DNA from: a virus
Direction: 5' to 3' (one strand)
UHGV virus genome: UHGV-0065625
Length of the DNA: 17,531 nucleotides
Part shown: in pieces, positions 1,937 through 17,531 of the stretch
Layout: each line of letters begins with the position of its first letter
Numbering within the stretch: the stretch's first letter is position 1
Position numbers and translations under genes: made by a program
The notes under the pieces: model-generated
The model's input: only the letters and a program-made list of their open reading frames with translations
Database searches by the model: none
What the model was told of the DNA's origin: nothing

Positions 1937-2481
1937 TGGCCAGACGCAGCACAATAGAAAAGCTGCCGGAAGACGTGCGCCGCTGGCTTGAACGGGCGCT
2001 GACTGAATCCGGCTTCAGCGGGTATAACGAGCTGGAGTCCCTGCTGCGTGAGCGGGGATACGTCATCAGCAAATCCGCTATCCATCGCTATGGACAGAAG
2101 ATTGAGCGCCGCTATGGTGCTATCCGTGCGGCGACAGAAGCGGCCCGCATGCTGACCGAAGGCGCAGCAGACGATCAGGATGCGCGTTCGGAGGCTGTGA
2201 TAGCCCTTATTCAGACCGAGCTGTTCGAGAGTATTGTCCAGTTGCAGGAGGCGGAAGAAGGCGAAGTCGATCCTAAAGAACGCGTGGCCCTGCTGTCGAA
2301 GGTGGCGAAGAATGTGGCTACGCTGTCACGCGCGTCCGTCAACCTCAAAAAGTTCCAGTCTGAAGTGCGGGCCAGAGCGCAGCAGGCAGCCAGCAACGCA
2401 GAGAAAATTGCCCGTAAGGGCGGACTGTCAAGCGACGCAGTACAGGCGCTTCGTCGCGAGATTCTGGGGATTGCCACATGA
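1936..2481 (+). CDS. Terminase small subunit-like DNA-binding protein (Mu gp27-like position)
   Basis: 181-codon ORF immediately upstream of, and overlapping, the large terminase gene (ATGA). Basic N-terminal region (RRSTIEKLPEDVRRWLERAL) is consistent with a DNA-recognition subunit. Assignment by position and composition. Confidence 0.55.
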   Translation: MARRSTIEKLPEDVRRWLERALTESGFSGYNELESLLRERGYVISKSAIHRYGQKIERRYGAIRAATEAARMLTEGAADDQDARSEAVIALIQTELFESIVQLQEAEEGEVDPKERVALLSKVAKNVATLSRASVNLKKFQSEVRARAQQAASNAEKIARKGGLSSDAVQALRREILGIAT

Positions 2482-4073
2482 CAAAATCATCCGGAGTGAT
2501 TTTAAACGCCGCTGGCGGCGGCCCCGAAGGGATGAGTCCCATGGACGGGAGGAATAACCTTGCTCCCGTTTTGCCTGATACCTCGGCGCTGGATGCCCCT
2601 CCCGTTCTGTTGCCTTACCAGCAGCGCTGGGTGGCAGACACCTCTCCGCTTAAGGTGATAGAAAAGAGCCGTCGTACCGGTATTACATGGGCTGAGGCAT
2701 CCGATAACGTACTGACCGCCGCCTCTTCTGCGCCAGCAGGCGGGATGAATGTGTATTACATCGCTTATAACCAGGACATGACCGTCGAATACATTCAGGC
2801 GTGTGCGATGTGGGCACGGGCATTCAACTATGCGGCCAGTGAAATTGAAGAAGGATTCTGGGAAGAGGACGACGACGACAAACACATCAGGACTTACACC
2901 ATCAAATTTCCTGACTCCGGCTTTCGTATTGTTGCGCTCTCCAGCCGCCCGTCTAACCTGCGTGGCCGTCAGGGTATTATTGTTATCGACGAAGCGGCGT
3001 TCCATGAGCAACTGGACGAACTGCTGAAAGCGGCGCTGGCGATGCTTATCTGGGGGGGGAAGGTACACGTTATCTCCACCCATAACGGTGACGACAATCC
3101 GTTCAATACGCTTATCGGGGATATCCGTGCCGGACGTCAGGGAGGCAGCATACATCGCATCACTTTCCGGGAAGCCGTATCTGAGGGGCTGTTCCGGCGC
3201 GTCTGTCTGCGCACCGGGAAGGAATGGTCGGAGGCCTCCGAGCAGGCCTGGATGGCATCGGTGTACAAATTCTACGGTGCCGGCGCATCCGAAGAGCTTG
3301 ACTGTATTCCGGCCAACGGTGGCGGTGCCTGGCTGTCCCGTGCCCTGATAGAGTCCCGCATGTCCGCTGATACGCCGGTATTGCGTCTGACCTGCAAGGA
3401 AGGTTATGAACTGCTGTCTGATGAGGTTCGCTTCCGCGAGACGCAGGACTGGCTTGATGAGTATCTGAAACCATTGCTGGAGGCACTCCCCACTGATGCC
3501 CGCTCTTTCCTGGGGCGCGACTTTGGCCGTAGCGGTGATTTGTCGGTGGACTATCCCCTGCTGCAGGAGAAGAACCTGGTACGACGCGTGCCATTCGTAC
3601 TGGAGCTGCGTAACGTGCCGTTCAGACAGCAGGAGCAAATCACCTGGTATCTGATGGATGGCCTGCCCGGTCTGCTGGGTGCAGCGTTTGATGCCCGTGG
3701 TAATGGTGCCTATCTGGCTGAATACGCCATGCAGCGCTACGGCTCCAGCCGGATTCAGCAGGTGATGCCAACCGAAGGCTGGTACAGGGAGCATATGCCT
3801 CCGGTCAAAGCTGCACTGGAAGACGGTAACCTGGTGGACTTACCAAAGGATGAAGACACACTGGATGACCTGCGGGCCGTTCAGGTGGTGAACGGTGTCC
3901 CCCGCGTACCGGAGCAACGCTCAAAAGCAAAGGCTGACGGTGGTAAACGCCACGGGGATTCAGCCATCGCACTGGCGCTGGCGTATTTCGCCAGCCGTGA
4001 AATTAACAAAGGGCCGGTGAAGGCAAGCTCACGCCGTCGTCGTCAGGCGGCCCGTATGCTGGAGGGATTCTGA
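2478..4073 (+). CDS. Terminase large subunit
   Basis: 531 codons. Walker-B-like hydrophobic run ending in DE (GIIVIDEAAF) and an upstream P-loop-like segment (KSRRTGIT); C-terminal nuclease-sized domain. Sits between the small-terminase-like gene and the portal gene. Confidence 0.8.
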   Translation: MTKSSGVILNAAGGGPEGMSPMDGRNNLAPVLPDTSALDAPPVLLPYQQRWVADTSPLKVIEKSRRTGITWAEASDNVLTAASSAPAGGMNVYYIAYNQDMTVEYIQACAMWARAFNYAASEIEEGFWEEDDDDKHIRTYTIKFPDSGFRIVALSSRPSNLRGRQGIIVIDEAAFHEQLDELLKAALAMLIWGGKVHVISTHNGDDNPFNTLIGDIRAGRQGGSIHRITFREAVSEGLFRRVCLRTGKEWSEASEQAWMASVYKFYGAGASEELDCIPANGGGAWLSRALIESRMSADTPVLRLTCKEGYELLSDEVRFRETQDWLDEYLKPLLEALPTDARSFLGRDFGRSGDLSVDYPLLQEKNLVRRVPFVLELRNVPFRQQEQITWYLMDGLPGLLGAAFDARGNGAYLAEYAMQRYGSSRIQQVMPTEGWYREHMPPVKAALEDGNLVDLPKDEDTLDDLRAVQVVNGVPRVPEQRSKAKADGGKRHGDSAIALALAYFASREINKGPVKASSRRRRQAARMLEGF

Positions 4074-5566
4074 TGGCGAGGGGTATCTGGGTTTCACCCG
4101 ATGAATTTGTTGCTTTTTCTGAGCCTCAGAAATCACTGACCGCGCAGATTGCCTCCCGCAGCCGCGCGATCGACTTTTACGGACTGGGCATGTATCTGCC
4201 CAATCCTGATCCCATTCTCAAGGCTCAGGGACGGGATATCCGTATCTACCGCGAACTGCGCACCGACCCGCTGGTCGGAGGCTGTATCCGCAGACGTAAA
4301 GCAGCGCTCAAATCGCTGGAGCGTGGACTGGAGCGCGGTCACGCTTCTGCCCGGGTCTTCCGTTTCATCCGCGACATGCTCGACGATCTGGATCTGTCCC
4401 GCATCATCGGTGAGATGAGCGATGCCGTGCTCTACGGGTATCAGCCCTGTGAAATCATGTGGGGCCGTTCGGTCAGGGCGTGGGCGGTGACGGATATTGT
4501 CGGCAAACCGCCTGAGTGGTTTCAGTTTGATACGGACAACTGCCTGCGCTTCCGGGCGCGTGATGCGGGTGTGGAGGGTGAGCTGCTGTCACCGTCAAAA
4601 TTCGTGGTGCCGGCACAGGATGCCTCGTATGACAATCCTTACGGTTTCCCGGACCTGTCCATGTGCTTCTGGCCGGTCGCCTTCAAGAAAGGCGGGATGA
4701 AATTCTGGCTCCGCTTTGCCGAAAAGTTTGGCTCCCCGTGGGTGATCGGTAAGCACCCGAGGGGTGCAAATGATGCAGAGATTGAAAAACTGCTGGACTC
4801 CATGGAGCAGATGGTGGAGGACGCTGTGGCCGCCATCCCCGATGACAGCAGCATTGAACTCAAAGCCGCGGATGGCAAGGCGGACAGCAGCGAGGTATTC
4901 CGCGAGCTGATCACGCTGTCACGCAGTGAGATCTCCATTGCATTACTCGGTCAGAATCAGACCACGGAAGCGAACAGTAACAAGGCCTCTGCACAGGCCG
5001 GGCTGGAGGTGACGGCTGATATCCGCGATGCGGATGCGGACATCATTCAGGCGGCAGTGAATCAGGTCATCAGAACGGTGGTCACCCTGAACTTCGGCGA
5101 TGTGCCGTGTCCGGTCTGGGCCATGTGGGAACAGGAGGCCATTGATGACACCCGTGCCACCCGCGACGAAAAACTCACCCGCGCGGGACTACGCCTGACC
5201 CCGCAGTACTTCATGCGGGAGTACCAGCTGCAGGAGGGGGATATTGACCTCTCTGATGCACCGGTTGCGGACGGGGCAGTGCCTGCGGAGTTTGCCGAGG
5301 CGATAAGCGCCGATCATGATGCACAACAGCAGCTTGACGACGCGCTGGACATTCTGATGAACGGAGGTGTGTTAAATGGCACGCTGGAACCCGTCCTGGC
5401 ACCTCTGTTCAGGCGGGTCGAAAACGGGGTTAACCCGTCTGAGCTGCTGGGCGAACTGGCGGAGCTCTACCCTCAGATGAACACGGACGATCTGCAGGAG
5501 CGGCTGGCCCGCATTCTCTTTGTGGCAAATATCTGGGGGCGTCTGCATGAGCGTGACAACGGCTGA
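4073..5566 (+). CDS. Portal protein (Mu gp29-like)
   Basis: 497-codon ORF directly after the large terminase gene (TGATG overlap), followed by the F-like gene. Size and position are typical of Mu-type portals. No sequence motif confirmed. Confidence 0.7.
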   Translation: MARGIWVSPDEFVAFSEPQKSLTAQIASRSRAIDFYGLGMYLPNPDPILKAQGRDIRIYRELRTDPLVGGCIRRRKAALKSLERGLERGHASARVFRFIRDMLDDLDLSRIIGEMSDAVLYGYQPCEIMWGRSVRAWAVTDIVGKPPEWFQFDTDNCLRFRARDAGVEGELLSPSKFVVPAQDASYDNPYGFPDLSMCFWPVAFKKGGMKFWLRFAEKFGSPWVIGKHPRGANDAEIEKLLDSMEQMVEDAVAAIPDDSSIELKAADGKADSSEVFRELITLSRSEISIALLGQNQTTEANSNKASAQAGLEVTADIRDADADIIQAAVNQVIRTVVTLNFGDVPCPVWAMWEQEAIDDTRATRDEKLTRAGLRLTPQYFMREYQLQEGDIDLSDAPVADGAVPAEFAEAISADHDAQQQLDDALDILMNGGVLNGTLEPVLAPLFRRVENGVNPSELLGELAELYPQMNTDDLQERLARILFVANIWGRLHERDNG

Positions 5567-6368
5567 ACTGGCGTACTGCATGACGCTTCCCCCGAAGCGG
5601 GCAGTCAGCTACCTGAAGTCCAAAGGGTATCAGATTACCTGGGACTGGGAGGAGATGTGGCAGGAAGCCCATGCCCGCGCCTTTACCGTCGCTAAAGTGA
5701 CCCGCCTGGATATCCTGGAAGATATTCGCGGGGCACTGCAGCAGGCTGTCGATGAAGGAAAAACCGATCGCTGGTTCCGGCAGGCGCTGGAGCCGGTGCT
5801 GAAGCGTAAGGGATGGTGGGGACCACGTGACACGACTGACCCGGTAACGGGTGAGCCGGTCACCATTCAGCAGGGCAGTCCGTGGCGGCTCGATACCATC
5901 TTTCGCACCAATATGTCCGTACTCTACAGCGCCGGTCGTTGGGCGGAGCAGATGGAAAACGTCGACGACAGGCCGTACTGGATGTATACCGGCATCAACG
6001 ACAGCCATACCCGCAGGAGCCATCTGGCGCTGCATGGTCTGGTGCTGCGCTGGGATGACCCGTTCTGGCAGGCATTTTACCCGCCGAACGGCTGGCGCTG
6101 CCGCTGTAGTGTGATTGCCCTGAGTGCGGCGGATGTACGTGCCCGTGGCCTGAAGGTTATCAGCTCCGGCTCTGTCATGGGCCAGGAACTGAAACTGGTC
6201 TCAGAGAAAACCGGCGAAATGCGGAACGTGGCCACCTTTAATACCGGCACCACGAAGGTGACCACCGACGTCGGCTGGTCTTATGCACCGGGGGCAGCAT
6301 ACCGTCCCGACCTGGCCCGCTATCAGGGTACGTTTCAGCCACTGGCACAACAGGAACTGAGAGGATAA
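5547..6368 (+). CDS. Head morphogenesis protein, Mu F / SPP1 gp7 family
   Basis: Contains the family-typical Cys motif PPNGWRCRCSV. Start set at ATG 5547 (GGGGG 7 nt upstream) rather than the TTG at 5520 reported by the ORF track. Overlaps the portal 3' end by 20 nt. Confidence 0.8.
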   Translation: MSVTTAELAYCMTLPPKRAVSYLKSKGYQITWDWEEMWQEAHARAFTVAKVTRLDILEDIRGALQQAVDEGKTDRWFRQALEPVLKRKGWWGPRDTTDPVTGEPVTIQQGSPWRLDTIFRTNMSVLYSAGRWAEQMENVDDRPYWMYTGINDSHTRRSHLALHGLVLRWDDPFWQAFYPPNGWRCRCSVIALSAADVRARGLKVISSGSVMGQELKLVSEKTGEMRNVATFNTGTTKVTTDVGWSYAPGAAYRPDLARYQGTFQPLAQQELRG

Positions 6369-6370
6369 CA

Positions 6371-6829
6371 ATGGCTTCCGATAACCTGGTCAGTATCACC
6401 ATTAACGATAAATCCCTGCGCCGGAGCCTCCGTGCGCTGGATCTTGCTGCCACAGACCTGGAGCCCGCGATGCGCAAAATCGCCGGAACCCTGCTGGCGG
6501 AAACACAGTTTAACTTTCTTGATGAGGGGCGTCCGGGGTGGATGCCCTCGCTGGCAGCGGAAGAACGTGACGGGCAGACACTGCAGGATACCGGGCGTCT
6601 GATGGGGTCAGTATCAACCGACCATGACGACCGGCAGGCTGTTGTGGGGACCAACGTTGTTTACGGTGCCATTCACCAGTTCGGGGGTAAAACGGGGCGT
6701 AATGAGTCTGTTGAACTTCCGGCCCGCCCGTTCCTGCCGGTGACGGGGGATGGAGAACTACAGCCTGAAGTGGTAATCCCCATCCTCGATACCATTGTCC
6801 GCCATCTTGAATCAGCGGCCCGTCGCTGA
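6371..6829 (+). CDS. Virion morphogenesis protein (Mu G-like)
   Basis: 152-codon ORF two bases after the F stop, with GAGG 8 nt upstream. Assignment by size and position. Confidence 0.55.
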   Translation: MASDNLVSITINDKSLRRSLRALDLAATDLEPAMRKIAGTLLAETQFNFLDEGRPGWMPSLAAEERDGQTLQDTGRLMGSVSTDHDDRQAVVGTNVVYGAIHQFGGKTGRNESVELPARPFLPVTGDGELQPEVVIPILDTIVRHLESAARR

Positions 6830-8173: not shown

Positions 8174-8602
8174 ATGTCTGATTACTTAAAAGGTAAACGT
8201 GTCGTTGATCCGGTACTGACCAGTATCGCCCGAGGCTATAAAAATGCCGCATTCATTGGCGAACGTATTTTCCCCGTCGTGCTGACGGACAAGGAAGGCG
8301 TGCGTGTGCCGACCTTCGGGAAAACCGCCTTTGTGGAATATGACACTGAGCGTGCCGTCGGGGCGGACAGCAATGTTCTGGTCCGTGAGAAAACCGGCAC
8401 GCTTGATCTGGTGCTGGGTGAGCACGATCTGGCTGCGCCGGTGGACTATCGCGAGCAGGCGGAGTCCATGTTTAACGAGGAGAGCAAGGCCATCCGTCGC
8501 GCCACGAATGGCGTGAATCTGCGCCGTGAACTTATCGCCGCCCGTCTGGCTCAGGATGAAAAGGTCTACCGTACGCGAGAAGCTGCCTCAGCTGCAGGTT
8601 GA
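8174..8602 (+). pseudogene. Putative major head subunit, N-terminal 142 codons only (frame break or deletion)
   Basis: Strongest ribosome-binding site in the window (AAGGAG, 5-nt spacing to ATG 8174), directly after the scaffold gene where the major capsid gene is expected. The ORF is far too short for a capsid protein and overlaps the next ORF in another frame. Confidence 0.4.
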
Positions 8603-8996
8603 GTACTTCCCGGAAAAGCCGTCCGAATACCGCCTCAATCATTCTGTCGGGGCGTTGCTGCTGAGCTATGCAGGATCGCGTTTCGACAGGCCGGATGATA
8701 CCGGTGCGGTGATCCAGCCTCAGACTATCCAGCTCTGCGTCACGGTGGTCTTCCGACAGCTCAACGGTAAAAAAGGGGCGATTAATGTCCTGGATGCTGT
8801 CCGCCGCATTCTTGGTGGCTACACCCCGCCCGGGTGCCGCCGCCGTATCTGGCTGACCCGCGAGGTGTTTATCGGTGAAGTCAGGGGGCTGTGGCAGTAC
8901 GCCCTCGACTTCGCGACTGAAAGCGTCTTTATCGAAGACAGCGATTTACCGTCCGGCCCGCTGTTAACTGAAGTGAACTATGAGGAAAGCGAGTGA
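8526..8996 (+). CDS. Structural protein, possibly head-tail joining (Mu gp37-like); 5' end uncertain (GTG 8526 or ATG 8556)
   Basis: Frame-3 ORF overlapping the upstream ORF by 77 bp. Contains ...EYFPEKPSEYRLNHSVGALLLSYAGSRFD..., which resembles my recollection of small Mu-like virion proteins. Unverified. Confidence 0.35.
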   Translation: MNLSPPVWLRMKRSTVREKLPQLQVEYFPEKPSEYRLNHSVGALLLSYAGSRFDRPDDTGAVIQPQTIQLCVTVVFRQLNGKKGAINVLDAVRRILGGYTPPGCRRRIWLTREVFIGEVRGLWQYALDFATESVFIEDSDLPSGPLLTEVNYEESE

Positions 8997-9247
8997 TGAA
9001 AGAATACCGCTATTCCGGCCCGGCCAGCGGCGTCACGCTGTCGGACGGAACCGAAATCCTGCTCTGGCCGGGGAAGACTGTTTCCCTGCCGGAGGAGCAT
9101 GACTACGTGAAGGTACTGGTGGCGCTGAAGCATCTGACGCCGGTATCTGAAGAAATTAAACCCGCCGGCACACCGGCTGTGCAGTCACCAAAGCGCAGGA
9201 ACGGCGGTGACAGCGAGGTGAAAACGGAGGACGCCCATGTCAGCTAA
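8993..9247 (+). CDS. Small hypothetical virion-associated protein (Mu gp38-like position)
   Basis: 84-codon ORF between the head-joining-like gene and the sheath gene. The likely start is ATG 8996, preceded by AGGAAAG. Confidence 0.5.
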   Translation: MMKEYRYSGPASGVTLSDGTEILLWPGKTVSLPEEHDYVKVLVALKHLTPVSEEIKPAGTPAVQSPKRRNGGDSEVKTEDAHVS

Positions 9248-10664
9248 CTATCTGCATGGTCCGGAAACCATTGAAGTGGAAAACGGTGCCCGCCCGGTTA
9301 AAACGGTGAAATCTGCCGTTATTGGCCTGATTGGTACCGCACCAATGGGGGATGTCAATACGCTGGTACAGTGCCTGTCTGAGAAAGACGCTGCGGCATT
9401 TGGCAGCCAGTTCACCGGCTTTACCATTCCACAGGCGCTGGATGCGATTTATGACCATGGTGCAGGCACCGTTCTGGTCATTAACGTACTCGATCCGTCT
9501 GTGCATAAAACCGCTGTGGTCAGTGAGAATGTGTCGTTCGACAAGGCGACAGGCAGAGCCCGGCTGGCTAATCCGGTGGTCGCGCAGCTGGTACTGAAAC
9601 CGGACAGCGACGGTCAGCCTTATGTTGAAGGTCAGGACTACTCGCTTGATGCACAGACCGGGGTGATTACTAACCTGGGTAAAAGCATTGCTGCAGATGC
9701 AACGGTGAAGGCCAGCTATAACTATGCTGATCCGACCAAAGTCACCCCGGCTGATATCATCGGTACCGTTAACGCTGCAGGCAACCGTACCGGCATGAAG
9801 CTGCTTAACGACAGTTTTAACCTGTTTGGCTACTTCGCCAAAATCCTGATTGCTCCGGTATTCTGCACCCAGAACAGCGTCTCGGTTGAGCTTATCGCCA
9901 TGGCTGAGAAACTGGGAGCAGTAACCTATATTGATGCGCCGGTTGGTACCACTTTTGCGCAGGCTCTGGCGGGACGAGGCCCGGAAGGCACCATTAACTT
10001 TAATACCAGCTCTGACCGTGTCCGCCTGTGCTACCCGCATGTGAAGGTATATGACCCGGTGACGAACACGGAACGTCTGGAGCCACTGAGCCAGCGTGCG
10101 GCGGGCCTGCGTGCCAAAGTCGACCTGGACAAAGGGTACTGGTGGTCATCCTCAAATCAGGAAATTCTGGGGATCACCGGCGTGGAGCGCCAGCTGTCGG
10201 CAATGATTGACGATCCGCAGAGCGAGGTGAACCTGCTTAACGAACAGGGGATCACCACGGTATTCAGCAGTTACGGCAGCGGCCTTCGTCTGTGGGGTAA
10301 CCGGACGGCAGCATGGCCAACGGTCACCCATATGCGTAACTTTGAGAACGTTCGCCGCACCGGTGATGTGATCAATGAGTCCATTCGTTACTTCAGCCAG
10401 CAGTACATCGACATGCCGATTACTCAGGCGCTGATTGATGCACTGACGGAGTCGGTCAACGCCTACGGTCGCAAAATGACTGGTGATGGCGCGGTACTGG
10501 GCTTCCGTTGCTGGTTTGATCCGGCCCGCAATCCGGAAACGGAGCTGGCCGCCGGGCACCTGTTGCTGAGCTACAAATATACGCCACCACCGCCGCTGGA
10601 GCGACTGACGTTTGAGACTGAGATCACCTCGGAATACCTGTTAACCCTGAAAGGGGGCAACTGA
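9237..10664 (+). CDS. Contractile tail sheath protein
   Basis: 475-codon ORF with GGAGGA ribosome-binding site, immediately followed (1-nt overlap) by a 173-codon tube-sized gene. This sheath/tube pairing and size are typical of Mu-like and P2-like myophage tails. Confidence 0.8.
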   Translation: MSANYLHGPETIEVENGARPVKTVKSAVIGLIGTAPMGDVNTLVQCLSEKDAAAFGSQFTGFTIPQALDAIYDHGAGTVLVINVLDPSVHKTAVVSENVSFDKATGRARLANPVVAQLVLKPDSDGQPYVEGQDYSLDAQTGVITNLGKSIAADATVKASYNYADPTKVTPADIIGTVNAAGNRTGMKLLNDSFNLFGYFAKILIAPVFCTQNSVSVELIAMAEKLGAVTYIDAPVGTTFAQALAGRGPEGTINFNTSSDRVRLCYPHVKVYDPVTNTERLEPLSQRAAGLRAKVDLDKGYWWSSSNQEILGITGVERQLSAMIDDPQSEVNLLNEQGITTVFSSYGSGLRLWGNRTAAWPTVTHMRNFENVRRTGDVINESIRYFSQQYIDMPITQALIDALTESVNAYGRKMTGDGAVLGFRCWFDPARNPETELAAGHLLLSYKYTPPPPLERLTFETEITSEYLLTLKGGN

Positions 10665-11185
10665 TGTCAAAGATTGAGATAAACCGAATCACGAATGCCA
10701 ACATCTATCTGGATGGTACTAACCTGCTGGGACGGGCTGAGGAGGTTAAACTCCCCGATGTCTCCATGATTATGCAGGAACACAAGGCACTGGGGATGGT
10801 GGGTAAGGTGGAACTCCCGGCTGGTTTTGACAAACTGGAAGGCGAAATCAAATGGAACAGCTTTTACCGCGATGCGATGCTGTCTGCCGCGAACCCGTAC
10901 AAGTCGCTGGCGCTGCAGTGTCGCTCCAGCGTCCAGCGCTACAGCTCGCAGGGGCTGATCGACGAAATCCCGCTGGTCACCTTCCTGACAATTATGTTCA
11001 AGAAGAACCCGCTGGGGACGTTTAAACAGCACGAGAACGCCGAGTTCTCCAGTAGCTTCACCTGCACGTATATCAGACAGGTACTGGATGGTGAAGAGTT
11101 GCTGCAACTGGACTATCTGGCCAACATCTTCCGCGTCGGTGGCGTTGATCAACTGACTGACTATCGGATCAATATCGGGGGCTGA
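10664..11185 (+). CDS. Tail tube protein
   Basis: 173 codons; start overlaps the sheath stop (TGATG). Size and position match tube proteins. Confidence 0.75.
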   Translation: MSKIEINRITNANIYLDGTNLLGRAEEVKLPDVSMIMQEHKALGMVGKVELPAGFDKLEGEIKWNSFYRDAMLSAANPYKSLALQCRSSVQRYSSQGLIDEIPLVTFLTIMFKKNPLGTFKQHENAEFSSSFTCTYIRQVLDGEELLQLDYLANIFRVGGVDQLTDYRINIGG

Positions 11186-11187
11186 CG

Positions 11188-11469
11188 GTGAGTGTTGAAC
11201 TGACTGACAAAGGAGGGCGATGTGCGTCACTGGGCATGTCAAATGGTACGTGGTTTACCCTCCTTGATATTCCGGGGGTGGAAACCCTTTTTAATACCCG
11301 TAAAACCAATGACCCGATTGACTGCACACGTTCAAAGGCCCGCAAACTGGCCGATTTGATTGAAGCATGGGAGCCGCCCGACCACTGGTTCTCCGGCATC
11401 GGCAAATCTGAGGGAAAGGCGCTTCTCATCGCTTTCCTGCGTAACTGCAAGGGTTTTCGCACTTGCTGA
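11188..11469 (+). CDS. Hypothetical 93-codon protein between tube and chaperone genes; possible moron
   Basis: ORF from GTG 11188 (GGGGG 7 nt upstream), Cys- and Trp-containing. Followed by a hairpin plus T-rich tract. No equivalent gene is expected at this position in Mu. Confidence 0.35.
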   Translation: MSVELTDKGGRCASLGMSNGTWFTLLDIPGVETLFNTRKTNDPIDCTRSKARKLADLIEAWEPPDHWFSGIGKSEGKALLIAFLRNCKGFRTC

Positions 11470-11475
11470 CATCAC

Positions 11476-11500
11476 AGGGGCTCCGGCCCCTTCTTCTTAA
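11476..11500 (+). terminator. Candidate rho-independent terminator after the 93-codon ORF
   Basis: AGGGGC-tccg-GCCCCT stem-loop (11476-11491) followed by TCTTCTTAATCTCCTTT. Confidence 0.45.
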
Positions 11501-11566
11501 TCTCCTTTAATATCCGTCACGTCCACCGCCAGACATACTGCTCTGAATTTACAAAGGAGTATGATC

Positions 11567-11902
11567 ATGTCACAGACCCAGTCCGATACTTTTACGCTGT
11601 CTTATCCTTTCACCACTGCTGCAGGTACCAGAATTGAACAGATTGAACTGAAACGCCTGACAGTAAAAGACCTGAAGCAGGTGCGCAAAATCAACAAAGA
11701 CCCGGCAGACTGGGACGAACCACTGATTGCCCGTAGCACCGGTATCCTCCCGGAAGACCTCGATAACATGGATCTTGCCGACTATATGGAGCTGCAGAAA
11801 CGATTTCAGAAAATCACTGGGCTGGGCAAGAGCGACAAAAACACTGATGCAGGCGCAGGGCCTGCTGGCGAGATGGTTCAGGTTTCAGCCGGGGGAGATT
11901 GA
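11567..11902 (+). CDS. Tail assembly chaperone (short, unshifted product)
   Basis: Small acidic ORF between the tube and tape-measure genes. Start set at ATG 11567 (AAAGGAG 7 nt upstream) rather than ATG 11561, which has only 1-nt spacing. Ends at TGA 11900-11902 immediately after a G5 run. Confidence 0.6.
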   Translation: MSQTQSDTFTLSYPFTTAAGTRIEQIELKRLTVKDLKQVRKINKDPADWDEPLIARSTGILPEDLDNMDLADYMELQKRFQKITGLGKSDKNTDAGAGPAGEMVQVSAGGD

Positions 11903-11984
11903 TGCCCTCGATACTGACGATCTGGAGATGTGGCTGGAGCAGGCTGAAGAGCAAATCAAAAGCGAGTTCGGCGACAATCAGTAA
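11567..11984 (+). CDS. Tail assembly chaperone, frameshift-extended fusion product (predicted +1 or -2 slip at GGGGG 11891-11895)
   Basis: The +1 frame is open across the G5 run and encodes a protein-like acidic tail EIDALDTDDLEMWLEQAEEQIKSEFGDNQ ending at TAA 11982-11984. The upstream part of that frame (track ORF 11727..) reads as out-of-frame junk. A conserved frameshift in chaperone genes upstream of the tape-measure gene is established. Confidence 0.4.
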
Positions 11985-11997
11985 CAACGTATCACTT

Positions 11998-12020
11998 AAC
12001 AGCCGCCAGTCGCGGCTGTT
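11998..12020 (+). other. Perfect 9-bp-stem hairpin (AACAGCCGC-cagtc-GCGGCTGTT) between chaperone and tape-measure genes
   Basis: Exact inverted repeat read from sequence; no adjacent U-tract, but a T7 run lies about 30 nt downstream. Confidence 0.4.
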
Positions 12021-12076
12021 CTGCATGGGGTTCAGACACTTCCCTTCCGTTTTTTTGCTTTCAGAGGATAGCCACC

Positions 12077-12583
12077 GTGGCCAGTGAATTTTCAGTCGGC
12101 GTCATTATTGGCGGCATTGTCGGGAGCAGCTTCCGCTCAGCCGTCAGTGGCACCCGACGCGCCCTTGATTCCCTTGGTGATACCTCCCGCCGTCTGCAGG
12201 AACGCCAGAATGCCTTAACCCGGGCAACAGAACGTTATGGTCAACTGGGTTCTTCCCGGATGCAGCATCTCAACAGCGAGTTGCTGCGGGTAAGCCGCAC
12301 CATGGAGCAAATTGAACGTCAGCAGCGCCGTCTGTCAGCAGTATCAGCCACCGGTGATGCGTTGAAGGCTAACCGCCTGGCGCTCTATGGTCAGGGTGCA
12401 GAAACCTATGCTATTGGCAGAACGCTGGGCGCACCGGTCATGGCCTCGGTTAAACAATATGCCTCGTTTGAATCACAGTTGCGGGATATCAGTGTCACAG
12501 GAGACCTGGATGCAAAACAGGAACGTGCAATTGGCCTGGCTATCAGACAGGCCTCGCTGAAGGTTACGGTACATTCTCAATAG
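12077..12583 (+). pseudogene. Tail tape-measure protein, N-terminal fragment (168 codons)
   Basis: N-terminus MASEFSVGVIIGGIVGSSFRSAVSG... and the ...YASFESQLRDISVTGDLD... segment resemble tape-measure N-termini. Far too short for a functional ruler protein; terminates 8-10 codons after the apparent junction with hub-like sequence. Confidence 0.55.
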
Positions 12584-13437
12584 ACGAGATCGAAGTGAGT
12601 TCGCCCGCGTCCGTTGTCGCTATCCGTGGGGTGGCCACCTCGGTTAACAGTGCTCTGCGGACTAAATCCAGCCGTGGTTTTGAGAACACCACGCTGGCAG
12701 CTGTTGCGGGTCGGATTGCCAGAAAGCACCGGCTGAAACTGGTGGGCAGCATTGAGTCCATCAGAATCGACCGGGTGACCCAGTATGCTGAAACCGACGT
12801 GGGTTTTCTGCGCCGGCTGGCCAGCGAGTATGGTTATGCAGTGAAAGTGGTCAGTGACCAGTTGATTTTTTCTCATCTGGCCACATTGCGCAGTCAGGAG
12901 CCGGTCAGGCAGTTAAAACCGCAGGATGTGGCCCACTTTTCCCTGCGTGACACCATCAACCGGGTCTATAAATCTGCAAAGGTAAAACACCAGAAAAGCA
13001 GCAGTAAAAAACTGATCGTCTACGAAGCTGATGGTGGTACCCGTGAAAGCGACAAAAAGCTCAAAGGCGGTAAGGTTACCAGCGCTGACTCACTTAAAGT
13101 TAACAGCCGCGTCAGCGACCCGGACAGTGCTCGGATTAAAGCGGATTCAGCACTGGCCAGACATAACGAATACCAGCAGAACGGCTCCCTGACGCTGACG
13201 GGAACGCCTCAACTGACAGCAGGCAACAAAATTGAACTGGTGGGCTTTGGACAATTATCCGGTCCATGGCTGATAATCACTGCCCGCCATGCGTTTGAGC
13301 GTAACAGCGGCTACACCACAGAGCTGGAAGTGGCACGGGGGCCAGTCACAAGAGGGAAAAAACAAAAAACTCAGAAACTCACGGTTTATCACCCGGATGG
13401 CAGTACATCGACGGTGATTAAGGAGAAGAAAAAATGA
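12472..13437 (+). pseudogene. Baseplate hub / late control D-like protein (P2 gpD, Mu gp44-like), 5'-truncated
   Basis: Frame open from 12472 with no start until GTG 12595. Recognisable hub-family similarity begins at ...EGYGTFSIDEIEVS... (about 12559) and continues (TTLAAVAGRIARKHRL, FLRRLASEYGYAVKV). The N-terminal ~75 residues expected for this family are missing. Confidence 0.55.
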
Positions 13438-13946
13438 CTGGTGTCACCCGCCAGGTCGGTACGGTCAGTGCCGTTGATGCCGACAGGGTTCAGGCCCGCG
13501 TTCGTCTGCCTGAATGCGATAATCTGCGCACAAACTGGCTTAACGTGCTGCAGCGCAATACCCAGGATAACAAGGATTACTGGCTCCCTGACGTGGGGGA
13601 GCAGGTTGAGGTGCTGCTCGATGCCAACGGCGAGGATGGTGTTATTCTGGGCGCGGTGTACTCAGACGTCGATAAACCGCCGTTCGGTGATAAAAACGTC
13701 CGGGGCACGAAGTACGCTGATGGCGCGGAGTTCAGTTATGACCGCGCGACCCATACGCTGACGGTCAAAGGAGGTATCGAGCATGTGGTGATCGAGGTTG
13801 CAGTGGGTATTAGTCTGAAAGGGAAAACCATTGATTTGACAGCTGACACTATCATGGTGAACGGCAATCTTGAAATCAAAGGGAGTACCCATGCGACTGG
13901 TAACATATTTGCAGATGGACAGAATTCCAATCATCACTCTCACTAA
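13434..13946 (+). CDS. Baseplate spike / assembly protein V-like
   Basis: 170-codon ORF overlapping the hub stop (ATGA), in the position of the spike gene. C-terminus ends in the His-rich NSNHHSH. Confidence 0.7.
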   Translation: MTGVTRQVGTVSAVDADRVQARVRLPECDNLRTNWLNVLQRNTQDNKDYWLPDVGEQVEVLLDANGEDGVILGAVYSDVDKPPFGDKNVRGTKYADGAEFSYDRATHTLTVKGGIEHVVIEVAVGISLKGKTIDLTADTIMVNGNLEIKGSTHATGNIFADGQNSNHHSH

Positions 13947-13985
13947 TTTTTCAAGTATGTGACTCCATTTCCTCTCCCGCGGATA

Positions 13986-13994
13986 TGATAGAAT
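13986..13994 (+). promoter_or_regulatory. Extended -10 promoter element TGaTAGAAT upstream of the island ORF
   Basis: TG-n-TAGAAT at 13986-13994 followed by an AT-rich tract; no good -35. A GGCGGGGA ribosome-binding site lies 5-6 nt before ATG 14028. Confidence 0.3.
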
Positions 13995-14027
13995 TTTTTA
14001 ATTAACACTAATTTGGCGGGGACTTAA

Positions 14028-14903
14028 ATGCGGTTATCAAGATCCTTATGTAAAGTAGTTGGCGATGTCATTGCTAACTCAGGCTCTCATGCAGCTTTAG
14101 ATACGTTATTTCTTACTTCGGGAGCACCAGGAAACCCTCCGGCAGGATCTCATAGTACAAAATGGAAAGACTGGTTATTTCTTGCAGGGCAAGATCCAGA
14201 TACAGATAGTCTGGCAGTTCTGGGCGGAGTAATTGAGGAGTTTATGGATTTACCTCCAAAAGAAGGTACTCCCGAATATGCAGAATGGAAGGAAAAACGA
14301 GACAGAATTGAAGCTGTGTTACAAGAGAATGGACTTAGATATTATCGTTTTGGTCGAGTGTTGCCTGAAGGCCACATCCCGTCACACAATATGGATTACC
14401 CAGAGACCATAATTACTTATCAACAGCCAGTAATGCCAGAAAAAGTTGAGAACTTACTGGAAAGGCTGGTCAAAGGCTTACAGCGAGCAATGCATCCACT
14501 TACTCATAGGCGAAAAGGAAGCCAGTCATTATCTTTTAGCAATGAATATGACGTGCAAGACCTTCTCCATGCATTGCTCAGACCATGGGTTCAGGACATC
14601 CGCCCAGAAGAGTTTACTCCAAGTTATGCTGGTTCAAGTACTCGAATGGATTTTTTGTTACCTGCGCATAAATTAGTACTGGAAACCAAAATTGTTCGTG
14701 ATCGTTCTCATGCAAAGAAAATCGGCGATGAACTTATTATCGATATAGAGCATTATCGTCGGCACTCTGATTGCAAAAATCTCTGGTGTGTCATCTACGA
14801 TCCGAACCAGCTTATTACTAATTCTGAGGGGCTGAAATCTGATCTTGAGGGGAAGAGAGTTTCTAAAGACGGAGAACTTATCGTCAAGGTTTTCGTAATT
14901 TAA
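14028..14903 (+). CDS. Cargo protein with C-terminal PD-(D/E)xK nuclease-like domain and N-terminal domain of unknown function; candidate defence/abortive-infection effector
   Basis: 291 codons. Motif read from translation: acidic helix NEYDVQDLLHAL (E173/D175), then RMD208FLLP, then LVLE219-T-K221 with 10-residue D-to-E spacing. No Walker motif in the N-terminal ~165 residues. Nuclease assignment is motif-based inference. Confidence 0.6.
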   Translation: MRLSRSLCKVVGDVIANSGSHAALDTLFLTSGAPGNPPAGSHSTKWKDWLFLAGQDPDTDSLAVLGGVIEEFMDLPPKEGTPEYAEWKEKRDRIEAVLQENGLRYYRFGRVLPEGHIPSHNMDYPETIITYQQPVMPEKVENLLERLVKGLQRAMHPLTHRRKGSQSLSFSNEYDVQDLLHALLRPWVQDIRPEEFTPSYAGSSTRMDFLLPAHKLVLETKIVRDRSHAKKIGDELIIDIEHYRRHSDCKNLWCVIYDPNQLITNSEGLKSDLEGKRVSKDGELIVKVFVI

Positions 14904-14957
14904 CAAACGTATCAATAACTCCTTTTTAAATCCCTTTAATATCGTTCTTTTCTTACT

Positions 14958-14973
14958 GGGGCAATACTGCCCC
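14958..14973 (+). other. GC-rich hairpin (GGGGCA-atac-TGCCCC) ending 1 nt before the W start codon
   Basis: Exact 6-bp inverted repeat with 4-nt loop. It occupies the position where a Shine-Dalgarno sequence for W would be expected; no U-tract follows. Confidence 0.35.
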
Positions 14974-14974
14974 C

Positions 14975-15322
14975 ATGAAAACGACCTCAGTATTCTGGCA
15001 ACCGGCTCTGCAGGCTCCCGGCGAAATCGTCCGGGGGCTGGATGATATCCAGCAGTCCATCCAGATCATCCTGCGGACTCCCCGCGGCAGCGACCCGCAT
15101 CGCCCAGAGTTCGGCAGCAATCTGCACCTTTATATCGACTGGCCTGTCGACCGGGCCATTCCGCATGTGGTTCGCGAATCCGTCGATGCCATCAGGCGCT
15201 GGGAACCCCGCTGCCAGCTTATGTCGGTTAAACCCGCCGTCGACGGCGAACATCTTACGCTCCGGGTGAGCTGGAAAGGCTCAGACGGACAACCCCGTAC
15301 TCAGGAACTGCTATGGCGCTGA
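14975..15322 (+). CDS. Baseplate wedge protein W (GPW/gp25 lysozyme-like family)
   Basis: 115 codons containing ...IILRTPRGSDPHRPEFGSNL..., matching the family pattern as I recall it. Followed by an overlapping J-like gene. Confidence 0.75.
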   Translation: MKTTSVFWQPALQAPGEIVRGLDDIQQSIQIILRTPRGSDPHRPEFGSNLHLYIDWPVDRAIPHVVRESVDAIRRWEPRCQLMSVKPAVDGEHLTLRVSWKGSDGQPRTQELLWR

Positions 15323-16416
15323 CAGAACCCGATTTTATTGAACTCGATGCCGATAAAATCACGGCAGAAATGATTGCGAAATATGAAGCGGATACCGGCA
15401 AAACGTTGTACCCGGCACAGGCAGAACGTCTGCTGATAGATCTGTGGGCCTATCGCGAAATGCTGGTCAGGGTGGCGGTACAGGAGGCGGCGAAGCTGAA
15501 TCTGGTCGCCTTTTCCCGGGAGCCGATGATTGATTACCTCGGAGAACTGGTTGGTGTATACCGCCTTCCCGCGCAGCCTGCCACCACCACACTTCAGTTC
15601 TCTGTGGATGAGGCACTGGCCATTGATGTGCTGATCCCGGCAGGCACCCGCGTCAGCGCTTCCGACAGCGTGATTTTTGCCACCGATACAGATGTAGTGC
15701 TGAAGGCCGGTTTGCAACTGGTCAATGCCCCTGCCACCTGTACTGAGCCGGGTACCTCTGGCAACGGCTGGCAACCGGCTCAGGTCAGTCAGCTGCTTGA
15801 TGAGATTGATAACGTTGACCTGCTGGTGACCAATCTGACGGCCAGCACTGGCGGTTCAGAGCAGGAAGACAATGACCGACTCCGGGAGCGTATCAGGCTG
15901 GCCCCGGAGTCATTCACCAATGCCGGAAGCCGTGGTGCATACCGTTTTCATGCCATGGGGGCGCATCCCAGTATTGTCGACGTCGCTGTTCTTTCTCCCG
16001 TTCCCGGTACTGTCGAGCTGTATCCACTGCTCAGCACTGGTCTGCCAGACAGCAGTATCCTCACTCTGGTAGAGAGTTTCTGTTCTGACGAAAAAGTCAG
16101 ACCACTCACTGATACCGTGCGGGCTAAAACACCTGTTCAGGTGGATTACACCATTGAAGCCAGGATTACGATCTATCGTGATCAGGATGCAATGTCGGTA
16201 AAGGACAACGCTAACAGCGCCATACAGAACTGGGTGGCATCACGTGCCGCCACGCTGGGACGCGATATTGTCCCCAGCCAGATTATCAGTGCATTGTCCG
16301 TTTCCGGGGTGTACCAGGTTGAACTGGTGACACCGGCACTGCGGGTGGTTGCAGAAAACGAATGGGCAAACTGTACGGCAATCACTCTTAACGTGACAGG
16401 GGTGTCCGATGGCTGA
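15313..16416 (+). CDS. Baseplate J-like protein (Mu gp47 / P2 gpJ-like)
   Basis: 367 codons, overlapping W at the 5' end and the I-like gene at the 3' end. Size and order match baseplate J proteins. Confidence 0.7.
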   Translation: MALTEPDFIELDADKITAEMIAKYEADTGKTLYPAQAERLLIDLWAYREMLVRVAVQEAAKLNLVAFSREPMIDYLGELVGVYRLPAQPATTTLQFSVDEALAIDVLIPAGTRVSASDSVIFATDTDVVLKAGLQLVNAPATCTEPGTSGNGWQPAQVSQLLDEIDNVDLLVTNLTASTGGSEQEDNDRLRERIRLAPESFTNAGSRGAYRFHAMGAHPSIVDVAVLSPVPGTVELYPLLSTGLPDSSILTLVESFCSDEKVRPLTDTVRAKTPVQVDYTIEARITIYRDQDAMSVKDNANSAIQNWVASRAATLGRDIVPSQIISALSVSGVYQVELVTPALRVVAENEWANCTAITLNVTGVSDG

Positions 16417-16987
16417 GGCGCTACGACTACCGCCACCGCTTGAGGGTGATATCAGTCTCAAAACGCTGGGAAGACTGGCCGAACGGCTGGATAACATCGA
16501 CCTGAGCGTACTGATGGTCTGTCTCGTCGATATCGTCGACAGTTCCGCGCTGCCATGGCTGGGCGAGCAGTTCTCGTTGTTCGGCGATGGCTGGGAACTG
16601 GCGGAATCGGACGATGTACGCCGCATGCTTATCAAATCCGCTATCGAGCTACACCGCTATAAAGGAACGCCGTGGTCAATCCGGGAAATTATCCGCCGTT
16701 TTGGCTTTGGCGAAGTAGAGCTGATAGAAGGTACGGGGCAGATCGGCTACGACGGTAAACACAGTTACAACGGACTTTTCGTCCATGGCGATGCACAAGC
16801 CTGGGCAGTCTATCGGGTCATCCTTCAACAGCCCATCACTAATGATCAGGCAGCGCTGTTACGTCAGACGCTCGCTGCCTTTGCTCCGGCTCGCTGCCAT
16901 CTGGCAAGCCTGGAATATCAGTCTGTCGCCATTCGATACAACAGTACTACCCGTTATGACGGTAGTTACAACCACGGGAGCAGTTAA
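16409..16987 (+). CDS. Tail protein I-like (baseplate/fibre attachment)
   Basis: 192 codons between the J-like and tail fibre genes; start overlaps the J stop. Confidence 0.65.
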   Translation: MAEALRLPPPLEGDISLKTLGRLAERLDNIDLSVLMVCLVDIVDSSALPWLGEQFSLFGDGWELAESDDVRRMLIKSAIELHRYKGTPWSIREIIRRFGFGEVELIEGTGQIGYDGKHSYNGLFVHGDAQAWAVYRVILQQPITNDQAALLRQTLAAFAPARCHLASLEYQSVAIRYNSTTRYDGSYNHGSS

Positions 16988-16989
16988 TT

Positions 16990-17531
16990 ATGGCAAATCT
17001 ACCTGAAACCCCACAGTGGGAAGACGGCATCTACCAGATTGAGGTCTCTGACCCCGTTCTGGGCGGGCCTGACGGAATTTCTAACCGTCAGGGTAAACAA
17101 CTGGCCAGCCGCACGCTGTACCTGAAGCAACAGGTTGAAAAAGGCGGGGCTGACCTTGCGAAACACATCGCGGCAGCAGACCCGCATGCCCAGTATGCAC
17201 CGAAAGCCAGTCCGGCATTCACCGGCACACCAACAGCACCTACACCTGCAAATGGCGATAACAGCAAAAAGCTGGCGACGACGGAGTTTGTGGCCAAAGC
17301 ACTTGCGGCGCTTGCAGGCAGCGCCCCTGAGACACTGGATACGCTTAAAGAGCTGGCTGACGCTCTCGGTAATGATCCAAACTTTGCGACTACGGTACTG
17401 AACAAGCTGGCGGAAAAGCTGGCTAAAGACCAGAACGGCGCAGATATTCCTGATCCTGCGCTGTTTGTCAAAAACCTTGGTTTGGGGGAAGGCTCTGCAC
17501 TGCCCGTTGGTGTGCCCGTTCCGTGGCCCTC
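16990..17531 (+). CDS. Tail fibre protein, 5' partial (runs off the window end)
   Basis: Frame open from ATG 16990 to the window end. Contains the conserved fibre segment ...ASPAFTGTPTAPTPA...TTEFVAKALAALAGSAPETLDTLKELADALGNDPNFATTV..., closely matching the equivalent stretch of P2 H-type fibres as I recall it. Confidence 0.75.
   Translation, partial: MANLPETPQWEDGIYQIEVSDPVLGGPDGISNRQGKQLASRTLYLKQQVEKGGADLAKHIAAADPHAQYAPKASPAFTGTPTAPTPANGDNSKKLATTEFVAKALAALAGSAPETLDTLKELADALGNDPNFATTVLNKLAEKLAKDQNGADIPDPALFVKNLGLGEGSALPVGVPVPWP

Follow-up and report, generated by a model that had tools for sequence, protein, structure and literature searches.

A tape-measure stub joined out of frame to a 5'-truncated baseplate hub gene in a defective BcepMu-type prophage of Escherichia coli

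The virus genome UHGV-0065625 contains, within the 17,531-nucleotide stretch analysed here (hereafter the window), a short tape-measure-like reading frame that runs directly into a second reading frame related to gpD-type baseplate hubs. How did these two frames come to lie together? They could be the remnants of a deletion, the complete genes of an unusual tail module, or the product of a faulty assembly. An initial annotation, made from the letters of the sequence alone, favoured one deletion that had taken the greater part of the tape-measure gene, the 5' end of the hub gene and the genes that normally separate the two. Our own reading, which we hold with a probability of about 0.93, is that the junction (junction B) is the scar of a single deletion in a defective, vertically inherited BcepMu-type prophage. 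The deletion would have arisen by illegitimate recombination, leaving pseudogene remnants in an element that is expected to make no tails, no heads and no lysis.

The late region and its intact relatives

The window covers the late genes of a transposable E. coli prophage of the BcepMu type, with a Mu-like head and a P2-like tail. With the whole window as query, a megablast search of 5426 complete E. coli genomes returns prophages that are 99.9-100% identical, in hosts that include strains 3-72 and 8178, strains DEF2, DEF10 and FEA3 from mice, and several human ETEC strains. The copy in E. coli 3-72 serves as the reference intact prophage and is termed L002 (sequences compared with the window carry working numbers of this form); all L002 coordinates given below refer to that copy. 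Isolated relatives are Escherichia phage PhiKM, classified as a Bcepmuvirus, and Klebsiella phage KP12.

All genes of the window lie on the plus strand and form a phage late-gene cluster, according to the map of open reading frames and their translations. Mu-type packaging and head genes (Gp27-like, large terminase, Portal_Mu, Mu F and G-like) precede the sheath gene (9237-10664) and the tube gene (10664-11185). An intact pair of tail assembly chaperone genes of the P2 E / E+E' type is found at 11567-11984 (annotated in L002 at 18905-19240 and 19185-19322; PF10109, matched on L003; PHROG 166), and its position directly upstream identifies the following gene as that of the tape measure. On the far side of the hub-like frame lies an intact gene for the gpV baseplate spike (13434-13946; PF04717 and the L002 annotation), which overlaps the stop codon of the hub remnant in the same way as in the intact relatives. 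It is followed by an extra gene for a protein of 291 amino acids (14028-14903), by gpW, gpJ and gpI, and by the start of the tail-fibre gene. The Mu-type families matched are Phage_Mu_Gp27, Portal_Mu and Phage_Mu_F, and the P2-type families are sheath, tube, GpU, X, GPD, V, W, J and I.

The BcepMu family joins transposition-type replication and Mu-like packaging to a P2-like tail cassette (PMC2771037). In Burkholderia phage BcepMu, PhiKM and KP12 (genus Bcepmuvirus), the terminase, portal and F head genes are likewise of the Mu type and the tail cassette of the P2 type. BcepMu-like phages have a DDE transposase and occupy different chromosomal sites in different hosts. A DDE transposase is present in L002 and PhiKM, outside the region covered by the window, and the near-identical copies occupy three unrelated chromosomal sites: by ppiD/hupB (L001), by yehR (L002), and inside ydcK, adjoining rimL-ydcH-opgD (L003). 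Three different sites are consistent with integration by transposition. None of the complete E. coli genomes searched has a prophage at the ydcK insertion site. The Nef and KingRac prophages of mouse-gut E. coli were considered as relatives, since mouse strains supply the best matches. This lead was dropped: Nef was detected via its xerC integrase gene and, carrying that gene, is not a transposable phage.

The 291-aa gene, intact between gpV and gpW, encodes in the C-terminal half of its product a DpnII/MboI-type restriction endonuclease (REase) domain (Pfam 4e-47; PADLOC Aga_Helical-REase 2e-30), and no methylase gene adjoins it. It is absent from PhiKM, in which the element thus differs from that phage, and is interrupted by IS100 and IS2 in ETEC relatives (L001). 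It is a possible moron, for which Dam methylation would provide the self-protection. At the 3' end of the window (17465-17531), a gix-like crossover site, TTGTCAAAAACCTTGGTTTGGGGGAA, occupies positions 17465-17490 within a 61-bp sequence. This sequence recurs twice downstream in L002 in inverted orientation, and a Gin-family recombinase gene follows. The inverted repeats and the recombinase gene indicate a putative invertible tail-fibre segment in this member of the family, unlike BcepMu, which is reported to be without one (PMC2771037).

The junction between tape-measure and hub sequence

Positions 8574-12566 of the window align to L002 15912-19904 without a mismatch, and positions 12565-17531 align to L002 23246-28212 with three mismatches (blastn with base-by-base extension); over 17.4 kb, the window and L002 differ by only four substitutions. 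Extending both alignments base by base places junction B at 12565-12566, where L002 position 19904 is joined to 23248 across a 2-bp 'TA' microhomology. Exactly 3343 bp, L002 19905-23247, are missing. The left end of the deletion lies within the palindrome GGTTAACC, and the junction alignment contains no insertion sequence, FRT/lox-like scar or other foreign sequence. Comparison with intact relatives, which the initial annotation had proposed, thus maps the breakpoint to the base pair. A deletion junction had been rightly recognised there; its position, put at about 12540-12560, was 5-25 bp off.

In L002, the lost interval holds the rest of the tape-measure gene, a gene for a 294-aa gpU-like protein, the gene for gpX (70 aa) and codons 1-94 of the gpD gene, which agrees with the single deletion first proposed. 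The pattern is not due to chance: the sequence on either side is identical to annotated complete genes. The 294-aa protein, annotated as 'phage tail protein', matches Phage_P2_GpU (PF06995, E=1e-37), and the tail protein X matches PF05489. The gene order TMP-gpU-gpX-gpD is common to intact L002 and phage PhiKM. It differs from that of P2, where gene X lies elsewhere and not between T and D, in that both gpX and the 294-aa gpU-like protein are encoded between T and D.

The tape-measure gene is reduced to a stub of 168 codons with a GTG start (12077-12583, plus strand). Its first 490 nucleotides are 100% identical to the start of the L002 gene annotated as 'phage tail tape measure protein' (CDS 19415-21880, 821 aa). 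Native codons 1-163 (12077-12565) are followed by TVHSQ and a TAG stop codon at 12581-12583, since 3343 is not a multiple of three and the tape-measure frame therefore reads five codons in hub DNA before it stops. The end of tape-measure-like sequence after about 165 residues, noticed at the outset, is explained in this way. PHROG 28 (tape measure) matches amino acids 1-162 of the stub (E=7e-21). No Pfam family matches within its 168 residues, because PF10145 occupies amino acids 160-341 of the intact protein.

Both homology and position, directly 3' of the chaperone pair, assign the stub to the tape measures of the P2 gpT type. P2 gpT, of about 815 aa, occupies the same slot directly after a frameshifting chaperone pair, and the intact relative, at 821 aa, matches both PF10145 and PHROG 28. 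Full-length members in P2-like tails have about 800 aa, including the PF10145 core. The studied copy differs from P2 gpT in ending after 163 native codons: codons 164-821, the distal 80% of the gene, are removed, and with them the PF10145 region.

The hub-like frame is the 3' part, codons 95-384 of 384, of a gpD-like baseplate hub gene without its native start (12565-13437, plus strand; L002 23246-24118 of CDS 22964-24118). It is entered in frame 3 at about 12565, at codon 95 (Y in YGTFSIDEIEV), and no stop intervenes before 13437; the first start codon in frame, a GTG at 12595, gives an open reading frame of 280 aa. The remnant has a single mismatch, C to T at window 13131, to the 'phage late control D family protein' gene of L002. 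It scores 41.5 bits against PF05954 (cut-off 30.1), over profile positions 78-304 of 305. Coverage of the PHROG 52 profile is 262-543 in the remnant versus 173-543 in the intact protein, a loss of 89 positions. The initial view that the alternative frame reads an internal part of the hub family is thereby confirmed.

Among known hubs (P2 gpD, Mu gp44, the R2 pyocin hub and the PF05954 family), the remnant is recognisable by its score above the PF05954 threshold, and its intact relative aligns to the R2 pyocin hub (PDB 6u5h chain C) over gpD residues 40-352. Since this alignment starts at intact residue 40, the deletion removes part of the conserved fold, at its N-terminal side, as well as the start codon. 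Compared with gpD-type hubs, residues 1-94 are missing and about 50 residues of alignable conserved fold are lost, so that the remnant has neither a complete N-terminal part of the fold nor a native start of its own.

Could neither frame be truncated, the 168-aa and 280-aa products being the full proteins of a variant tail module whose tape-measure-like protein is short and whose hub has another N-terminus? Each frame has a start codon and is predicted as an ordinary open reading frame by gene callers, and the hub frame exceeds the Pfam gathering threshold. However, both are nucleotide-identical to fragments of longer genes in prophages of about 100% identity, and the last five codons of the stub are out-of-frame hub DNA. 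The PF10145 core, gpU and gpX are absent, the hub is without residues that align to the solved R2 pyocin structure, and the arrangement occurs in 0 of 638 related complete genomes. The probability of this explanation is vanishingly small. The initial annotation had pointed to a complete 168-residue family member, or a full-length downstream protein with a different N-terminus, as results that would speak against a deletion; the two proteins are instead residues 1-163 of an 821-aa protein and a fragment of the product of a 384-codon gene.

Occurrence of the junction and successive deletions

The exact 168-aa stub was found in 23 contigs from at least seven separate accession series, all of them 100% identical across junction B. 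Its carriers include contig JAPUSH010000030.1 (52.8 kb) of the NCBI draft GCA_028634895.1 and the Logan assemblies SRR7693618, ERR9465232-5, ERR2242491, ERR13984881, SRR34450868 and SRR25445573; runs SRR9333179, ERR1790939 and SRR18844987 are carriers as well. A 40-mer spanning the junction is present in L003-L012, and junction B is also found in human-gut metagenome assemblies. One unbranched Logan contig of 16 kb (L004) spans both this junction and a second one, junction A, described below. By contrast with these finds, the junction occurs in 0 of the 5426 complete E. coli genomes, 0 of the 638 matching genomes cover at least 80% of a junction-spanning query, and the 40-mer has no copy in GTDB representative genomes or JGI metagenome contigs. 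Because it is absent from the complete genomes and from the GTDB and JGI scans, the carrier lineage is known only from draft and short-read assemblies.

The lack of any complete genome with the junction in the E. coli collection would also be expected if a collapse or mis-join had occurred in one assembly while the genes were intact in the real genome, a concern raised when the locus was first described. Against this stands the identical junction in 23 contigs from independent samples and different pipelines (NCBI draft, Logan, ENA metagenome), spanned by long unbranched contigs and kept in descendants with further deletions. The breakpoints have only 2 bp in common and offer no repeat to collapse on. 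Judged by these assemblies, junction B is not an artefact; this explanation appears effectively refuted and retains next to no probability.

Junction B is one of three lesions within the window that make the studied copy defective, unlike BcepMu-like phages. Junction A, at 8574, marks the loss of 1391 bp (L002 14522-15912) with a 1-bp overlap. It leaves a stub of the major head gene (8174-8602, plus strand) with 133 native codons and 9 new ones (142 aa), as defined by blastn and junction extension against L002; the stub matches PHROG 1005 over profile positions 2-139 of 315 (E=7e-52). Besides the remainder of the major head gene (317 aa when intact), deletion A takes the genes for DUF2190 and gp436 and codons 1-14 of Gp37.

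The third lesion is an IS2-like element, the left end of which forms positions 1-53 of the window on the minus strand (51/53 identity to the IS2 copy in L001; 107/111 for the longer end in L014). It is inserted 114 nt into an SLT endolysin gene, the remnant of which runs to 668; homology to L002 begins at window position 54, corresponding to L002 6001, inside CDS 5887-6615. The IS2-truncated endolysin frame (201 aa) had no record in an exact-sequence look-up. The lineage contigs reaching so far upstream (L015-L018 and L023) all break off at L002 6001, 28 nt inside the IS2 end. Junctions A and B occur together on L003, L004, L014 and L016. From their association on long contigs and the contig breaks at the IS2 end, the three lesions travel together.

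Look-ups of the 142-aa head stub and of an internal 107-aa frame of the tape-measure stub identified sub-lineages with further lesions. Deletion C (L002 16605-19556, 2952 bp; window 9267-12218) joins sheath codon 11 to tape-measure codon 48 with an 'AA' overlap in L015, L017-L020 and L024. Deletion D (L002 8009-11559, 3551 bp; window 2062-5612) creates an in-frame Gp27::MuF fusion in L017, and a larger deletion of 7353 bp in L023 (L002 12204-19556) extends from MuF to the tape measure. In L015, L018 and L023, an additional G in a run of eight G's (L002 ~9007; window ~3060; contig position ~3035) shifts the frame of the large terminase gene, which is split into frames of 202 and 273 aa. In total, the late region of the lineage shows at least five deletions, one IS insertion and one homopolymer frameshift, with almost no point substitutions. 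Junction B is kept in every further-deleted variant (L015, L017-L020, L023 and L024) and is therefore ancestral to them.

The deletion in L023 and deletion C have the same right breakpoint to the base, L002 19556/19557, beside the palindrome CCCGGG (L023 6231-6232 and L015 9241-9242; L002 19555-19557; window ~12217-12219). Either the second deletion ended at the old junction, or the site is a breakage hot spot.

Degeneration of prophages by deletion is well documented (PMC6379469). Cryptic or 'grounded' E. coli prophages such as e14, Rac, DLP12, Qin and CP4-57 have likewise been immobilised by deletions and IS insertions, and are vertically inherited and eroding (PMC6379469). The prophage studied here is much younger than these, its remaining genes being about 100% identical to those of active relatives, and it differs from e14- and Rac-type prophages in that its successive deletion states are visible side by side in public assemblies.

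Origin and consequences of the deletion

All four junctions, A to D, have microhomologies of only 1-3 bp, and none of their breakpoints carries an IS, a recombinase scar, an FRT/lox-like scar or a gix-like site. The deletion itself, the limits of the lost segment, the gene families concerned and the inheritance of the scar are established; we infer the recombination mechanism from this 1-3 bp microhomology and from the absence of anything foreign at the breakpoints. One event of illegitimate recombination between two sites with only TA in common, of the replication slippage or end-joining type and at the level of microhomology, would have removed the 3343 bp. The tape-measure frame now runs five codons into hub DNA and stops, leaving a pseudogene, and the hub remnant, deprived of its start and of translational coupling, is a second one. 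The scar is inherited vertically in one bacterial lineage, in which later deletions go on eroding the late region. What favoured the deletion may be selection, acting against an inducible and lethal prophage, or simply a bias towards deletions. A possible imperfect repeat, TGGnTATCAG, occurs at each breakpoint of deletion B, about 30 nt upstream; it was judged too weak and too distant to account for the event.

The same scar might have been made by a site-specific or element-driven process: a Gin-like invertase acting at pseudo-sites, a deletion adjacent to IS2, or laboratory engineering. The element has a Gin-family recombinase and a gix-like site, and enzymes of this kind exchange at a 2-bp core; an IS2 lies 12.5 kb upstream. 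The right end of deletion C that is re-used in L023 beside CCCGGG, and the left end of deletion B within its palindrome, are hints of non-random breakage. Of the 26 positions of the native gix-like site, however, the breakpoints match only 7-9, no better than 17-47% of all 26-mers of the element, so that this likeness is at background level. The junction is free of IS sequence and of recombinase scars, and its presence in human-gut metagenome assemblies argues against a laboratory construct. An origin of this kind is accordingly considered highly improbable. Only slightly less improbable, to our minds, is that the erosion is non-random in a wider sense, through a breakage hot spot, a specific nuclease or end-joining, with stubs and moron perhaps selected for anti-phage functions (dominant-negative head or tail fragments, or Dam-dependent restriction).

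A related question is whether the crippled element is kept because it is useful to its host. The benefit might lie in immunity to superinfection, in the REase-domain moron, or in truncated head and tail proteins by which the assembly of related incoming phages is poisoned. The block from gpV to the fibre gene, including the 291-aa gene, is retained in every variant; the remaining frames are intact, with only the four substitutions to L002; and PADLOC relates the nuclease domain of the moron to defence-associated effectors. Yet near-identity to active relatives means that the lesions are recent, and intact frames are then expected without selection. The ladder of further deletions indicates ongoing loss, and the moron itself is interrupted by IS elements in relatives. 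Retention for such a benefit is unlikely, if less so than the non-random processes just considered. The reading we prefer is that of illegitimate recombination followed by vertical inheritance and continuing erosion.

What has the prophage lost? In P2, T, U and D are required for tail assembly, and the tape measure is required for polymerisation of the tube, from which the studied element is predicted to be unable to make tails. The essential particle and lysis genes affected are those for the tape measure, gpU, gpX and the N-terminus of gpD, which are lost, the truncated major head gene, and the endolysin gene split by IS2. With the head and endolysin lesions added, no heads, no particles and no lysis are predicted. 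The initial annotation had likewise expected a loss of tails and had not linked these two lesions to it. By its gene content, having lost genes essential for particle production, the prophage is classed as defective (cryptic).

Junction B is ordinary prophage erosion, a pseudogene scar of an already known kind and nothing new. In annotations, both reading frames are best labelled pseudogene fragments and the prophage defective. As it would form no particles, the prophage would contribute neither to phage-mediated transfer nor to lysis. Successive deletions in the public assemblies of its lineage constitute a natural ladder, with the intact form still in circulation, and this ladder could be used to study the rate of deletion relative to substitution, and the preferences of breakpoints, in the decay of prophages.
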